Shown here: positions 2,689 to 59,167 of the stretch, one piece after another
Numbering within the stretch: position 1 is the stretch's first letter
How the letters are laid out: every line of letters begins with the position of its first letter
DNA from: a phage
NCBI GenBank assembly: GCA_020619395.1
Contig: GCA_020619395.1_4860.1
Length of the DNA: 64,000 bases
Strand: one strand, 5' to 3'
Notes under the pieces: model-generated
Told to the model about the DNA's origin: nothing
The model's input: the letters and a program-made list of their open reading frames with translations, nothing else
Database searches by the model: none
Made by a program: the position numbers and the translations under genes

Positions 2689-3456
2689 TTATTTGTAATT
2701 AACCATATACGGCGAGCCCTGCTTAGTAAAGCCAACCGTCATCTTGCTCGCCTCTTCTTTTACCCATGCGGGTAATTCTTCACGGAATGCCGGGTTCAGG
2801 AACCAAATCTGCTCATAGCGCCCGTCAATCTTTTCAACAACACGTTCCCAACCTTCGACGTACGTCAACGAGAACCATTTAGAACGCGCCTGGCGTGCCC
2901 AGTAGTGGTATTCGATGGTTCGACCGACGTGAGTCAAGACATCAATCAGAACTTGGTAGAAGCTCGGCTTTCCGATAACATGGGTATACTCGAAGATAAC
3001 AGACTCTTCGCCAGGGACGAAGTTATCTTCAAAATTCTTCTCCCCTGTTAACGGTACCATTATCGTGTCGTTGTTGATACACAGCAACCAGTGCTTATTC
3101 GAAAATATCGGCGTATCGCCTGAGAAACGAGCCCAGCGATAATTTTCAATCGCGACGCCAATCTGTGGCCGTAGTGTATCGACCACCTTCGCTATCGCTG
3201 CAGGGTCTATCGGCTCATAAACCAGACAAATCGCTTGCGCTTGCTCTCTTTCCTGCTCAGGTTCCGCAGGTCGTGGTCGCCGCCCCAGCATCAAAATCCC
3301 ACTGAGATTAGTTTCCCCAATCTCAATGATTTCTATTTCGCTAGTGGGAAGCTGCCGTTTAGCGTCCTCCATGTCGACGGCCCCTAATAACCCGTATTCG
3401 TAGTCGTCGAATTCCACCGTGTAGAATTCATCGGAGAACGCAAAGAGTTTCATCAT
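2689..3456 (-). CDS. hypothetical protein
   Basis: 255-aa ORF, tight spacing with neighbours. Confidence 0.55.
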   Translation of the reverse strand: MMKLFAFSDEFYTVEFDDYEYGLLGAVDMEDAKRQLPTSEIEIIEIGETNLSGILMLGRRPRPAEPEQEREQAQAICLVYEPIDPAAIAKVVDTLRPQIGVAIENYRWARFSGDTPIFSNKHWLLCINNDTIMVPLTGEKNFEDNFVPGEESVIFEYTHVIGKPSFYQVLIDVLTHVGRTIEYHYWARQARSKWFSLTYVEGWERVVEKIDGRYEQIWFLNPAFREELPAWVKEEASKMTVGFTKQGSPYMVNYK

Positions 3457-3457
3457 C

Positions 3458-3721
3458 TTATTTCTCCATTGTTTTAAAGAGAACGTCTACGCTGTTACGG
3501 AGCATATTCAGTTCTTCTTCTTTCTTACGCAGCAGCATTTCAGGAGCGTTCTTTGCAAACTCTTTCAATGCCATTTGGACGACATGCGAATCGGTTTCGT
3601 CCGGAAACAGGGCCTTTAATGCAACCCATTCTTCCGCCGTGAAAACATCGCCTTTGCGAACGTTACGCTGTTGTGGTAGTCGAATTGTTTTACTGAGTCG
3701 GTCAGTCATAGCTCCACCCAA
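3458..3721 (-). CDS. hypothetical protein
   Basis: 87-aa ORF, 1-nt gap to upstream gene. Confidence 0.45.
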   Translation of the reverse strand: MGGAMTDRLSKTIRLPQQRNVRKGDVFTAEEWVALKALFPDETDSHVVQMALKEFAKNAPEMLLRKKEEELNMLRNSVDVLFKTMEK

Positions 3722-4242
3722 ATCAGTTTAAAGGTATTACCTTCTAAGCCGGTCGGATGGATAATCATCGCTTCGGTATAGATAGGCTCTTCTTCTGCAA
3801 TACGGTGCTCAGCTGCTAAGCCTGAAAGGTGCATGTAGAGGTCTTCATCCATATCCCCGTTAAAAGATGAGGTCAGGATGAAAGGTGTGGATTCTGCGAT
3901 TTGCAAAAGCGTTTCTTTGCTAATCTGCATCTCCATTGTCCGACGTCGTTCCATCCAACTGCCTTGTTCGTGGATATACGGGTCGGTATTAATGCGAACG
4001 ACAGGTTCCGTAGACACACCCAGACCACGCGACATCATCTGGATGGCCAGAAGCGTCCACCATTCTTGTTCAGCTATCGGGAAACCGATAGCTTTCATCG
4101 TCCCGTCCGGTTGTGGAACGTGCAGTTGTCCACGATGTTCGTCTGGAAACTCGATGATCTTCTGTCCATTGACAGGAATAAACGGCGGTTCGTCCGTAGC
4201 AACCACCACTTTAGGTTTGAATGGAACGACGTTGTCAACCAT
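3706..4242 (-). CDS. hypothetical protein
   Basis: 178-aa ORF. Confidence 0.5.
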   Translation of the reverse strand: MVDNVVPFKPKVVVATDEPPFIPVNGQKIIEFPDEHRGQLHVPQPDGTMKAIGFPIAEQEWWTLLAIQMMSRGLGVSTEPVVRINTDPYIHEQGSWMERRRTMEMQISKETLLQIAESTPFILTSSFNGDMDEDLYMHLSGLAAEHRIAEEEPIYTEAMIIHPTGLEGNTFKLIWVEL

Positions 4243-6579: not shown

Positions 6580-6627
6580 TATAGTTCTCCTTGAGGTCTT
6601 TTACATACGTACAGCCGTGGCCGTAAA

Positions 6628-14968: not shown

Positions 14969-15268
14969 TTAGCGTTTTTTCAGTGGGAGTAACAGACGAC
15001 GTTTATGCCAAACTTCGAAATGCATTTCTGCCCACTCGGTGACTTGACTGTCATCTTTAGGGTTGATATTAGAAATGCCCTTGAAGCGGTTACGGTTACG
15101 TTCGTCGATTTCGATTTCCAGAACGCGCTGACCATCAGCACGAGTGGTCACGTTCAGGATTTTACCAACCACGATCGGACTACCATCGGTATTCTTCTTC
15201 GTCGGGGTGGTGTAAATCTCAGGTTCGATACGAGAGGTTAAAGCGCGAGTCAGTAATTTGATTCTCAT
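14969..15268 (-). CDS. hypothetical protein
   Basis: 99-aa ORF. Confidence 0.45.
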   Translation of the reverse strand: MRIKLLTRALTSRIEPEIYTTPTKKNTDGSPIVVGKILNVTTRADGQRVLEIEIDERNRNRFKGISNINPKDDSQVTEWAEMHFEVWHKRRLLLPLKKR

Positions 15269-15366
15269 CAGGTGTTACCTTTTTGCAGTTCTCGTACATA
15301 AGGTTTGGGTGATACGTAAAAGACTTACTATGTAGCCCAATCCCTTATATATTCGAGGTTGATAGA

Positions 15367-30067: not shown

Positions 30068-30331
30068 TTAGGGTAAAGTTGCCTCCCAGTCGTGGTGGTG
30101 AGGCTCAGGCAGCGTACCAAGCGCTGCTTTAATACACGTACTCAGCGGAGTATCATCGAACGCAACACGCCCGATAGTACCCACGTTGATGTGTTTAGGA
30201 TTTACGGGTAAGAACTCCTTCACCCGCTCGTACTCAGCCCAACAGACATCGGTGTTTAAAGCTGAAAACCCAGGACGGTGAAACATAAATAGCACTCCTC
30301 GCGTAAAAATACCCCACTCATAGTGAGGCAT
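30068..30331 (-). CDS. hypothetical protein
   Basis: 87-aa ORF. Confidence 0.4.
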   Translation of the reverse strand: MPHYEWGIFTRGVLFMFHRPGFSALNTDVCWAEYERVKEFLPVNPKHINVGTIGRVAFDDTPLSTCIKAALGTLPEPHHHDWEATLP

Positions 30332-34481: not shown

Positions 34482-34529
34482 GTTTGCCTTCTAATGAGAA
34501 AGTATTAGTCGTTCATATCCAAAAGGTCA

Positions 34530-34567
34530 TGCGTAAAAAAGAAGAAATGGAACCCCGAAGGGTTCCA
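34530..34567 (-). terminator. rho-independent terminator
   Basis: stem ggaaccc/gggttcc with cgaa loop, T-run on minus. Confidence 0.55.
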
Positions 34568-41975: not shown

Positions 41976-42908
41976 ATGAATAAATCTAAGTCAGGGTTGC
42001 ACATCTTCTCGATAGGTATCGTCGCGGAAGATAAACCTCGTGGTGCCACTCGAGTTAAAGTCATCCCTATCGAAGTTAACTTTATTAATCCTACAGCTGT
42101 CGATGCAACAGAGACACCTGTAGAGAAGCAACACAACAGTTTAAGTGGTACTGACAACCTTACTGTAAAGCAAGGTAATGCCATCACTGCAAAATGGATG
42201 AAGTCCAACAGCAACCGGGTTAACCCTCCGGATGTGAAAAAAGAAGACTACGTAAGAATCTGGCGTATCGGTGAAACCGATATGTACTTCTGGGAAGATT
42301 TAAACAACAGTAACGTTAAGCGACTGGAAGATGGGGTATACGCCTGGTCTGCTGACCCAGTAAACCAGATGGCCGATGACCTCTCTAACGCCTACGTACT
42401 GAATATCTCCCCGATGGATGGTCACGTTACTTTACGCACCAGTATGACTAACGGTGAGAAAAATGCGTATCTATTTCAATTGAACACGCGCGATGGGTTT
42501 TTCCAGTTAGTAGATGACGAAGGGCGTAAGTTCTACCTTAACTCCCCAGAGGATGACTTAGGGTTTGAAAACGCCTGCCGATCGAAGGTTAATATCAATA
42601 AAGAGGACGCTTTCATTTATGCTAAACGTTCTATTAATCTCGAGACAAAAACGATTAACGAGAAGTGCGAAACTCGCAACTCTGCAGCGTCGAAAAACAT
42701 GGCATGGACGACTGAAGACTGGAAGACCGATTGTCCAACGAATCTATTTACCGGTAACCTGGAAGTAGGTAAGGATTTCCTCTATAATGGCAAGGGTGAA
42801 GGTAAGGGTACATTCACAGTTACCGAATCGGTTATCGGTGGCATCACCTTTAGTCTTCACTTGCATACTGGCCATGGTCCGGGCAACGACACTAGCACAC
42901 CGCACTAA
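41976..42908 (+). CDS. hypothetical protein (first gene of plus-strand tail-fibre module; possibly structural)
   Basis: 310-aa ORF with strong SD gagaggagg; no catalytic motif. Confidence 0.6.
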   Translation: MNKSKSGLHIFSIGIVAEDKPRGATRVKVIPIEVNFINPTAVDATETPVEKQHNSLSGTDNLTVKQGNAITAKWMKSNSNRVNPPDVKKEDYVRIWRIGETDMYFWEDLNNSNVKRLEDGVYAWSADPVNQMADDLSNAYVLNISPMDGHVTLRTSMTNGEKNAYLFQLNTRDGFFQLVDDEGRKFYLNSPEDDLGFENACRSKVNINKEDAFIYAKRSINLETKTINEKCETRNSAASKNMAWTTEDWKTDCPTNLFTGNLEVGKDFLYNGKGEGKGTFTVTESVIGGITFSLHLHTGHGPGNDTSTPH

Positions 42909-43116
42909 TTTAATTACGTGTGAGCTGTATATTGTGACAATAAACCTCCTAACTGTAACGATAACCCAAATCGCTTGTACACGGTTAGCCACTTTTTTCG
43001 CACAAAAGCCGGTTTATTGTCAACTAATTTACGAGTCGGGGCAGTTAATATGCCTCGAAGTACAAGTAGTTGAACATTGGGTTCTTCTGCTATCATTTGT
43101 TAATGGAGATAAGTAA

Positions 43117-43326
43117 ATGAGCATTCGTGAAATCACCGCAGGCAGCGACGTTTCTGGTCTGGTAGAAGCAGGCACTGTTCAGGTTTCTGGACTGAGCACC
43201 GTTACCGAAGTTACCGAAGCGCTGGCTAAGAAAGCCGAAGCTGAAGGCGGCGTAGCATTTAAAGTTACCGCTTGTGGCGGCAACAACAAAATGTTCGGCA
43301 ACGCAATCTACTACGTAAACGCGTAA
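43117..43326 (+). CDS. DUF1471 (YdgH/BhsA/McbA)-like small protein lacking a signal peptide
   Basis: 69 aa; C-terminal AEAEGGVAFKVTACGGNNKMFGNAIYYVNA parallels BhsA-family AKSFRITSVTGPNTLHGTAVIYK; own promoter-like region and terminator. Confidence 0.45.
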   Translation: MSIREITAGSDVSGLVEAGTVQVSGLSTVTEVTEALAKKAEAEGGVAFKVTACGGNNKMFGNAIYYVNA

Positions 43327-43353
43327 TCGGCCTGCAGGCAAAAAAGATATAGG

Positions 43354-43397
43354 TACCCTACTCCCATTGGGAGTAGGGTTTACCTTTTATTTTTTTC
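43354..43397 (+). terminator. rho-independent terminator (CCCTACTCCC/GGGAGTAGGG family)
   Basis: 10-bp GC stem, attg loop, long T-run. Confidence 0.65.
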
Positions 43398-44649
43398 TTG
43401 CTTTGTAGCGATGCATTTCAACAAACGGCTTACCCCAAGCCCCGAAAGGCCCGACGATTGCCTGCGCGTCGTTTACCAAATTCTGGTTATACCAACGCGC
43501 GTTCCCCAACAAAAAGTTTTCCCGGTCGAAGAATGTGGTATTAAAGACCCACTCCCCTTCTTCCCAGGTCGGCCAGTACCCTACACATTTACCAATACGG
43601 TTAAAGATAGGACCTAGCGTCTTCTTCCCATCTGGGTCAGTCGGGTCTTTTAAATAGAACCGGCCCCAGATAGCGTTGTGGCTTATTCCGTGAATCTCTT
43701 TTTCGAGATACGGGTTGTCTATCGTAAAGATAAACGAGGATTCGTGCGTCAGCAACGCTTTTAACGTTTCTGAGTTACGAATACGTTGAACGGACGTAGG
43801 CGTACTTAAATCACCTACACCGATGGCGTCCCAATCGTAATAGCGACGGGTTTCCAATACAATCTTCGCCACGCTAAGGTTTGGCAGACTCAGCATAATC
43901 GCACGGTCGCTGAAATAGCCCTGCGGTGGCAACCAATGCAGAATACCCCCGATGACGAACCCAACGGTTTTCCCTGTAATGGAATCGGGTAAGGTCAACA
44001 TTAACGAAGAATAGTAATCTCGCGTAGTATCGAGTTTGTTCATCGTTAAACCGGATATGGGGTAAGTCTTCACTTTACCAATATTCGCCATCACTAGACA
44101 GCCGATGTCGGGTGTGTTGGCTCTCCGCACGATGTTACCAGCGCCGGTTAAGCGAACACCCACTGGGTCAGATTGGTGCGGTACCCATTGACCGTTGATG
44201 TTGTACAGTACCCCAGTACGGTATTTCTCTTTCCACTCATCGTCGCAGACTACAACAACGTCGTGTGCATCATCAGGATTGAAGTCCTGAGTGTAGTGGT
44301 ACCCAGGAGGGCACAGGTGCGTTTCTACGGGCACATCTGCATTAATAGACTGGTAGTGTGCCTCAACGAATTCGAGCTTCGGTAAGCCCTTCCCAAGCGT
44401 TGGAATCGCGATTCCTGACTTGGTGTTTAACCAATCTTGCAACGTGTCCGTACGGTTTTGTAAATCAGCCAGGTGATACTGGCTATAGAAGGTATATTCA
44501 GCACCTAGTGCTTCTAGTCCTACTTCGAAAAAGTGGTAGTTAGCACAAAGGGTATTTAAGGGCTGCGTGACATCGATGGTTCCCCAAGTTCGGGTGTCTC
44601 GAGAGAAGCCAAAAGCGCTGTCGGCCCGCACTTGATAAGCAGTAGTCAC
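43387..44649 (-). CDS. hypothetical protein
   Basis: 420-aa ORF on minus strand embedded between plus-strand genes. Confidence 0.55.
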   Translation of the reverse strand: MTTAYQVRADSAFGFSRDTRTWGTIDVTQPLNTLCANYHFFEVGLEALGAEYTFYSQYHLADLQNRTDTLQDWLNTKSGIAIPTLGKGLPKLEFVEAHYQSINADVPVETHLCPPGYHYTQDFNPDDAHDVVVVCDDEWKEKYRTGVLYNINGQWVPHQSDPVGVRLTGAGNIVRRANTPDIGCLVMANIGKVKTYPISGLTMNKLDTTRDYYSSLMLTLPDSITGKTVGFVIGGILHWLPPQGYFSDRAIMLSLPNLSVAKIVLETRRYYDWDAIGVGDLSTPTSVQRIRNSETLKALLTHESSFIFTIDNPYLEKEIHGISHNAIWGRFYLKDPTDPDGKKTLGPIFNRIGKCVGYWPTWEEGEWVFNTTFFDRENFLLGNARWYNQNLVNDAQAIVGPFGAWGKPFVEMHRYKARKK

Positions 44650-59102: not shown

Positions 59103-59167
59103 CTTGTTTACGAGCCGGACTATGTTTATGGACATAGTCCGCTCGTTCTACTTTTTAAGGAAGCGTA

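Follow-up and report, generated by a model that had tools for sequence, protein, structure and literature searches.

The gene at 43117–43326 of the stretch of phage DNA analysed here (64,000 nt; hereafter the window) is firmly established as a conserved, selected and translated DUF1471 gene that lacks a leader, has predicted phage-type expression signals of its own and lies beside the gene for the tail spike. Its product is SPN3US gp172, and the reading that we prefer, at a probability of roughly 45%, is that gp172 derives from a periplasmic DUF1471 protein of the host, of which the phage has domesticated the mature portion, and that it is made in the cytoplasm and carried at low copy number on the tail or baseplate. 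The source is an SPN3US-like, nucleus-forming giant (jumbo) Salmonella phage, which is virulent, and the window region shares 97–99% identity with SPN3US-like jumbo phages (genus Seoulvirus) that infect Salmonella, E. coli and Proteus (top match Proteus phage 7, 98.9%).

Among the small envelope proteins of enterobacteria, those of the DUF1471 family rank with the most strongly stress-induced. The family is one of Enterobacterales, its members are stated to carry an N-terminal Sec signal peptide and to be periplasmic, and no DUF1471 protein has an established molecular mechanism (PMC11705850). A partner of gp172, if found, could show what the host family binds, and the amber-mutant genetics and established virion proteome of SPN3US make the question directly testable. 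The gene, its DUF1471 label and its detection in virions are already public; new here are the apparent precise deletion of the leader, the clade-wide synteny next to the spike gene, the promoter class, the extreme codon bias, the exchange of alleles and a tandem paralog. We found no paper that deals with both SPN3US and DUF1471, or with both BhsA and jumbo phages. A leaderless copy that is long kept beside the spike, is written in the best codons and has shuffled alleles would suggest that the domain matters at the phage–envelope interface.

The locus comprises the following features (positions in the window):

41976–42908, + strand: gp173, central tail spike (cell-puncturing device), by phmmer match to phiKZ gp164; phrog_3216
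43028–43052, + strand: phage-type promoter motif TTTACG-N15-TATG, conserved in SPN3US, pEa29 (pEa_SNUABM_29) and Caitlin
43053–43116, + strand: predicted 5' leader, 64 nt, with GGAG at 43105–43108 and an in-frame TAA at 43114–43116
43117–43326, + strand: gp172 coding sequence, 69 aa, ATG start, leaderless single DUF1471 domain, allele type A, phrog_8068
43340–43396, both directions: bidirectional intrinsic terminator (A-tract 43340–43345, stem 43355–43365/43369–43379, loop ATT, T-tract 43380–43396)
43387–44649, − strand: gp171, tail-associated virion protein, homolog of phiKZ gp130 by tblastn to PHIKZ130, convergent with gp172

The DUF1471 domain and its leader

The reading frame opens with an ATG that has a Shine-Dalgarno GGAG (43105–43108) 8 nt upstream, exactly where an earlier note on this DNA had placed a 69-aa gene, and the in-frame TAA immediately 5' of that ATG (43114–43116) rules out an N-terminal extension. 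The product is 100% identical to SPN3US gp172 (SPN3US_0172 / YP_009153466.1), i.e., the window protein and the published 7 kDa smallest virion protein are the same gene without any difference, and RefSeq already names it "DUF1471 domain-containing protein."

Assignment to DUF1471, which the earlier note had also made, is upheld by profile and by predicted fold. Specifically, PF07338 scores gp172 at 43.5 bits (E 3.3e-11; Pfam gathering cutoff 27 bits), with residues 16–66 on profile positions 2–54 of 55, and an AF2 model built from eight phage homologs (pLDDT 89.9) has a beta-alpha-beta-beta topology. The best Foldseek matches of this model in the PDB are all DUF1471 structures (4evu YdgH-C, 2ma8 SrfN, 2jna, 2m2j, 2noc and 2ma4 YahO; TM 0.66–0.78, prob 1.0), with STM0082 and STM1478-N among the proteins of the solved matches. 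By sequence and by modelled fold, gp172 is a true DUF1471 domain.

The model also superposes on RcsF, a stress sensor of the outer membrane (2y1b, 2l8y), at TM 0.79–0.80—about equal to the DUF1471 matches, at an identity of just 10–11%—and on chain B of 9biy (according to the entry, the periplasmic domain of IgaA; TM 0.79). This resemblance may reflect a common fold only, yet it offers a lead toward envelope-stress signalling.

Within the family, gp172 reaches no NCBIfam equivalog cutoff (BhsA, McbA, YbiJ, YhcN or YahO); its best scores are 40.9 bits for McbA (cutoff 110) and 39.4 for BhsA (cutoff 90), and allele types B and C and P0013 likewise stay below every such cutoff. The annotated orthologs of gp172 (phrog_8068) include Kwan gp191, the "putative BhsA" of Stratton and Wellington and the "DUF1471 domain containing protein" of pEa_SNUABM_43. 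Because no equivalog cutoff is even approached, the BhsA labels appear unjustified by sequence and are over-annotations, so that one practical gain of this analysis is their correction in several phage records.

With the single-domain DUF1471 proteins of enterobacteria (BhsA/YcfR, McbA/YbiM, YbiJ, YhcN, YahO, SrfN), gp172 shares a domain of ~55 residues, the beta-alpha-beta-beta fold (in gp172 from the model), the extent of a whole mature protein—from the cleavage site through a C-terminal (I/V)YK-like end—and confinement to Enterobacterales, the host order of every carrier phage. It differs from them in that it has no Sec leader, is encoded in the tail module of a lytic jumbo phage, ends in type A with YYVNA instead of IYK, and has been detected in virions.

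The evidence that gp172 has no signal peptide, as claimed earlier, consists of a hydropathy heuristic, an alignment and the stop codon directly before the ATG. Within the first 32 residues the best 10-residue mean hydropathy of gp172 is 1.24, versus 1.65–3.13 in leader-bearing bacterial homologs, and the maximum among phage DUF1471 homologs is at most 1.41. Against 1.84 billion representatives, a profile search gave 73 matches, mostly proteins of 83–88 aa with MKK-hydrophobic-AxA leaders; two giant repeat proteins (P0016, P0018) gave many short partial matches in the same search, which are probably low-complexity noise. In the joint alignment (A3), the phage M+SIREIT stands opposite the bacterial cleavage site between AxA and AQEIT. 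As aligned, gp172 begins at the bacterial signal-peptidase site, with the Sec leader apparently replaced by a single Met, so that the gene would encode the entire mature protein and nothing more.

Lacking a leader, gp172 must be made in the cytoplasm. The earlier note had called the protein cytoplasmic rather than periplasmic; its leaderless state and cytoplasmic synthesis stand, but the description is incomplete, since gp172 peptides have come from CsCl-purified virions (PMC5694885). The protein may thus act in the virion or at the envelope of the cell infected next.

The transcription unit and its place in the spike module

Alignment of the locus with SPN3US, pEa_SNUABM_29 and Caitlin revealed a conserved block, TTTAC(G/A)-N15/16-TATG, upstream of the gene. 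The motif lies 65–90 nt 5' of the ortholog's ATG in 10/12 loci, and the type C orthologs have no exact match to it. Across the window, TTTAC-N15/16-TATG occurs six times as against 1.2 copies expected:

6604–6627 (−), 15297–15320 (−), 30284–30307 (−), 34514–34537 (−), 43028–43052 (+) and 59107–59130 (+): copies of the promoter motif (TTTACG-N14/15-TATG)

The five copies other than that of gp172 sit 25–40 nt 5' of gene starts or plausible starts, the copy at 30284–30307 falling within a crude gene call (30068–30331). The full motif is common to gp172, an SbcC-like nuclease gene and four small genes without an assigned function; gp173, gp171 and gp170 have a bare TATG only, 15–33 nt 5' of their starts (15 nt for gp173).

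In phiKZ, middle promoters contain AAanTTACc at about −24 and late promoters a TATG whose G is +1, and phiKZ-like transcription is by phage RNA polymerases, host RNAP not being used (PMC4666361). The element found here is like these promoters in that a TTAC-containing element stands ~20–24 nt 5' of a TATG; it differs in the element itself (TTTACG in the SPN3US clade, AAanTTACc in phiKZ). No SPN3US transcriptome, promoter map, start mapping or in vitro transcription was found in the searchable literature. By analogy, the predicted transcription start is the G of the TATG (43052), with the TTAC element at ~ −24, and we infer that gp172 forms a separate unit driven by a phage RNA polymerase, of a promoter class unlike that of its late structural neighbours. 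A candidate promoter motif for SPN3US-like phages emerges from the comparison as well.

A sigma70-like promoter, which the earlier note had proposed, found no support. A sigma70 consensus scan of 42500–43900 returned no sites (1.9 expected), and the pair that likely lay behind the proposal (TTGAAC at 43070–43075 and TATCAT at 43091–43096) is spaced by 15 nt and not retained in Caitlin; what is conserved is the phage-type motif.

The leader of gp172 shows no unusual RNA structure (folding z −0.22). For the 208-bp spacer plus leader, no Rfam family scored above chance, and a tRNA search and folding gave sub-threshold hairpins only; with matches of that kind, we did not call a riboswitch or sRNA. 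A second, degenerate promoter-like motif lies directly 3' of the gp173 stop (42909–42945, +). Its copy in Caitlin (L002, about 3735–3765) is an exact TTTAC-N15-TATG, and in both pEa29 (L003, about 3750–3960) and Caitlin a GC hairpin with a T-run stands between this second motif and the gp172 promoter, which by sequence hints at a short separate spacer transcript that is reduced in SPN3US and the window. Two mechanical ORFs overlap the spacer (42787–43116, +, 109 aa; 42914–43096, −, 60 aa); they are probably not genes, because they are unannotated in SPN3US and the spacer is poorly conserved outside the promoter block.

At its 3' end the unit is closed by a terminator with an 11-bp stem (43355–43379; dG −25 kcal/mol, z −5.8 vs shuffles), which serves both gp172 and the convergent gp171 and whose T-tract overlaps the gp171 stop codon (43387–43389). 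The arrangement of A-tract, hairpin and T-tract recurs with covarying stems in 10/12 orthologous loci; in mP0013 and Kwan the hairpin is kept and the T-run is absent, because a second gene comes next. The strong terminator of the earlier note is therefore real, and so is its picture of an isolated unit between structural genes: the gene has its own promoter motif and terminator and is flanked by the spike gp173 and the virion proteins gp171 and gp170.

These neighbours place gp172 in the tail module. By phmmer, gp173 matches phiKZ gp164 (PDB 6orj) at E 6.6e-27, and its C-terminus resembles the Mu gp45 baseplate-puncturing device; the ortholog in L009 carries PF18715 Phage_spike above cutoff, and in the loci examined the gp173 gene always stands immediately 5' of the DUF1471 gene. 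On the far side, gp171 has been classed as tail-associated and essential (Thomas et al., 2016; PMC5105663), gp171 and gp170 are virion proteins (Ali et al., 2017, Suppl. Table 1; PMC5694885), and gp168–170 are phiKZ gp131-like baseplate or fibre candidates (PMC5694885). We found no SPN3US baseplate structure in the literature. Contractile injection systems have small spike-adjacent genes as well, such as that of T4 gp5.4, the PAAR tip, and the T6SS effector or adaptor genes that follow vgrG. The resemblance of gp172 to these is positional only—a small gene right after the gene for the central spike—along with the notion of puncturing-device cargo into the periplasm; gp172 differs from them in having no PAAR or known adaptor/effector domain and in being, as it appears, separately transcribed.

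Distribution, origin and exchange of alleles

One leaderless DUF1471 gene of 66–78 aa occupies the same slot in 12/12 SPN3US-clade loci examined, which span Seoulvirus, Erskinevirus, Machinavirus, Wellingtonvirus and Derbicusvirus as well as metagenomic relatives, at flank identities down to 47%. A first tblastn with gp172 as query listed 32 records and gave a patchy-looking distribution. We rejected this patchiness as an artefact of sensitivity: inspection of the slot (in STsAS, phiEaH2, Machina, EarlPhillipIV, Kwan and metagenomic contigs with distant matches) and queries with types B and C found the gene in every relative. Queries with the divergent forms brought the number to about 60 phage records, each with a single copy and all of them SPN3US-clade Enterobacterales phages, the hosts being Salmonella, E. 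coli, Proteus, Erwinia or Cronobacter. No DUF1471 match was listed by the three tblastn searches in phiKZ, 201phi2-1 or Goslar, nor in the Klebsiella, Serratia or Vibrio relatives with a gp171 homolog.

Some records omit or distort the gene. In that of STsAS (MH221128.1) the locus tag STsAS_147 is skipped and the type B gene (L010 3822–4037, −) is unannotated, as is the DUF1471 gene of JN03 (MT799840). In the SPFM records LR535901, LR535903–LR535908, LR535911–LR535913 and LR535917 (SPFM1, 5–10, 12, 14, 15 and 20), the 1.5-kb region matched as 19–23 short pieces and there are 61-aa "hypothetical proteins" (P0009–P0011) that are seemingly scrambled gp172 fragments (e.g., MFGNAIYYVNVTEVTEALAKKAEAEGGVAFGSDVS); such pieces suggest faulty assembly of the records, not biology.

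Since DUF1471 is a family of Enterobacterales (PMC11705850) and all carrier phages infect Enterobacterales, an ultimate host origin of the domain is supported, and the nearest cellular matches are likewise Enterobacterales. The closest bacterial proteins, from many genera, reach ≤44% identity, and 5,426 E. coli genomes contain no DNA match to gp172; as judged from such matches, the capture is old and without an identifiable donor. GC content was considered as a sign of foreign origin and set aside as uninformative (gp172 0.51, window 0.479, neighbours 0.45–0.51). The "host-derived moron" of the earlier note thus holds for an ultimately host-derived domain in an autonomous unit, but not for a sporadic or recent acquisition, given its presence at all 12 loci and the distance from E. 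coli DNA and bacterial proteins; the alternative named in that note, a mimic, is possible. A recent, dispensable and sporadic moron read by host sigma70 RNA polymerase would explain the promoter–terminator unit, a domain family of the host order and a codon usage like that of highly expressed enterobacterial genes. This explanation is essentially excluded: no sigma70 site was found, the gene is in every clade member examined, the distance from E. coli genomes and from any bacterial protein is as just given, and phiKZ-like phages transcribe without host RNAP (PMC4666361).

The gene is under purifying selection, with dN/dS of 0.09–0.39 within allele types, and its codon usage is extreme. By a list of E. 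coli optimal codons that we compiled after Ikemura, the Fop of gp172 is 0.84, which ranks first among 64 window genes (mean 0.53, sd 0.07), and the orthologs keep values of 0.63–0.84 vs 0.48–0.61 in their neighbours. As a pattern of sequence this argues for sustained selection for efficient gp172 translation. A 99-aa gene at 14969–15268 (−; phrog_10750) has the second-highest Fop of the window (0.69) and the same promoter motif as gp172, and may be in the same highly expressed class.

Allele exchange was assessed in the Seoulvirus/Erskinevirus set from identity matrices, trees with bootstrap values and a plot of sliding identity. Type A comprises SPN3US and the window, pEa29 and Caitlin (74–84% identity within the type), type B comprises STsAS, phiEaH2 and Machina (82–88%), and type C is Derbicusvirus-like; types A and B share 42–51% identity. 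The flanking genes group differently, gp171 and gp173 both joining the window, pEa29, STsAS and phiEaH2 on one side (NJ bootstrap 100% for gp171, 83% for gp173) and Caitlin with Machina on the other (100% in both genes), whereas the gp172 tree gives 100% to A, 100% to B and 0% to the flank groupings. DNA identity between pEa29 and STsAS is 82–88% in both flanks and drops to 30–60% across about 43130–43336, and that between STsAS and phiEaH2 is about 70%, rising to 95–98% in the 3' half of the gene. The conflict of trees and the drop in identity together point to a gp172 coding sequence that has been exchanged between phage lineages, or to old alleles that have been maintained and recombined. 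Allele types do not track host genus.

Two other signs of transfer were discarded. Caitlin and Machina, as a same-genus cassette swap, are only ~69% identical in DNA overall and no recent breakpoint can be read between them; and the lower synonymous divergence of gp172 was rejected as a decisive sign of recent transfer, because strong codon bias explains it.

Virion component or intracellular factor

Ali et al. (2017) detected gp172 in CsCl-purified SPN3US as "the smallest SPN3US virion protein," from 4 unique peptides and 6 spectra at 81% coverage, with a size-normalised abundance (SC/M) of 0.86 as compared with 0.93 for the 12-copy portal, 1.00 for gp170, 0.74 for gp171 and 0.23 for the spike gp173 (PMC5694885). 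This detection is a single data set at a low level (the 6 spectra). In the same study gp172 is not labelled a Head protein, is absent from 47(am1) particles and is said by the authors to have a virion status that needs resolving (PMC5694885), and it is not mentioned in the 2016 SPN3US proteome paper (PMC5105663); neither paper reports a gp172 mutant. The earlier note had allowed for an ORF that is untranslated; the coverage by published virion peptides and the dN/dS values both speak for translation.

Under the domesticated-domain reading given at the outset, a phage RNA polymerase would transcribe gp172 from the TTTACG-N15-TATG promoter and the protein would be efficiently produced in the cytoplasm, where, being non-exportable, it would stay available for tail or baseplate assembly. 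A few copies would be incorporated close to the spike or attached there; when the next cell is infected, the tail would take this envelope-type domain through the outer membrane without Sec, and gp172 would there bind whichever envelope component DUF1471 domains bind, with allele exchange as adaptation to variable partners.

The evidence divides between this placement in the virion, which is favoured by the constant gene order in the spike module and by the stoichiometry seen in proteomics, and action inside the infected cell, which is favoured by the codon bias, the promoter class and the allele exchange. The main rival reading, possible but less likely, takes gp172 for an abundant non-structural protein of the cytoplasm, a decoy, mimic or binder directed at a host factor in the infected cell (e.g., a handler or sensor of DUF1471-type or RcsF-like envelope proteins before export), the virion peptides being carry-over. 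The top codon optimisation of 64 genes, retained in orthologs, and a middle-type promoter of its own, common to the SbcC-like nuclease gene and unlike the bare TATG of its neighbours, are features that fit an abundant non-structural protein better than a tail part of few copies. Lateral exchange of alleles is typical of host-interaction genes, virion detection is low and inconsistent, and the fold is also like that of RcsF (2y1b, TM 0.79). Yet the gene has kept a fixed place in the spike/baseplate module despite about 50% flank divergence, and its product was covered to 81% in CsCl-purified particles at a normalised abundance like that of bona fide low-copy virion proteins; moreover, no cytoplasmic partner is known for any DUF1471 domain, and leaderless YdgH is non-functional in the cytoplasm (PMC11705850).

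A bolder form of the virion reading, which we consider quite unlikely, makes gp172 a periplasmic effector delivered by the virion, i.e., the tail spike and not Sec would bring a host envelope domain to the periplasm. At puncture gp172 would then bind the envelope target of host DUF1471 or RcsF-like proteins, and might thereby dampen envelope-stress signals, change the permeability of the outer membrane or hold the tail tip in place, and the interchangeable A, B and C alleles would follow variation in the target. If this holds, gp172 would establish a new class among the "ejected" proteins of phages and offer a first molecular entry point to DUF1471 binding.

It is also unlikely, though slightly less so, that the role of gp172 is confined to assembling or decorating the baseplate, its fold serving as a small structural brick or as a chaperone for the spike or gp171, with no envelope activity and no relation to the function of the host family. 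The gene adjoins those of the spike and the essential tail protein gp171, and the protein was detected in virions, both as such a role would predict; a further point in its favour comes from a second gene of 186–191 aa that, in Wellingtonvirus and one metagenomic lineage, directly follows the first DUF1471 gene:

L006 6306–6881, + strand: second leaderless DUF1471 gene
L007 4484–5059, + strand: second leaderless DUF1471 gene
L014 (Kwan) 3287–3847, + strand: second leaderless DUF1471 gene

The N-terminal domain of this paralog is a leaderless DUF1471 domain (30 bits, Foldseek TM 0.80), and its C-terminal tail is long, of low complexity, rich in Ala/Thr/Pro/Lys and probably disordered—in Wellingtonvirus, a linker- or decoration-like feature. 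Against a purely structural role, alleles of 42–51% identity interchange beside unchanged partners (gp171 80–89%), which is hard to reconcile with a tight interface, and the codon bias of gp172 is above that of every structural gene in the window. In Wellingtonvirus-like phages, additional short ORFs of 52 and 77 aa separate the spike gene from the DUF1471 gene.
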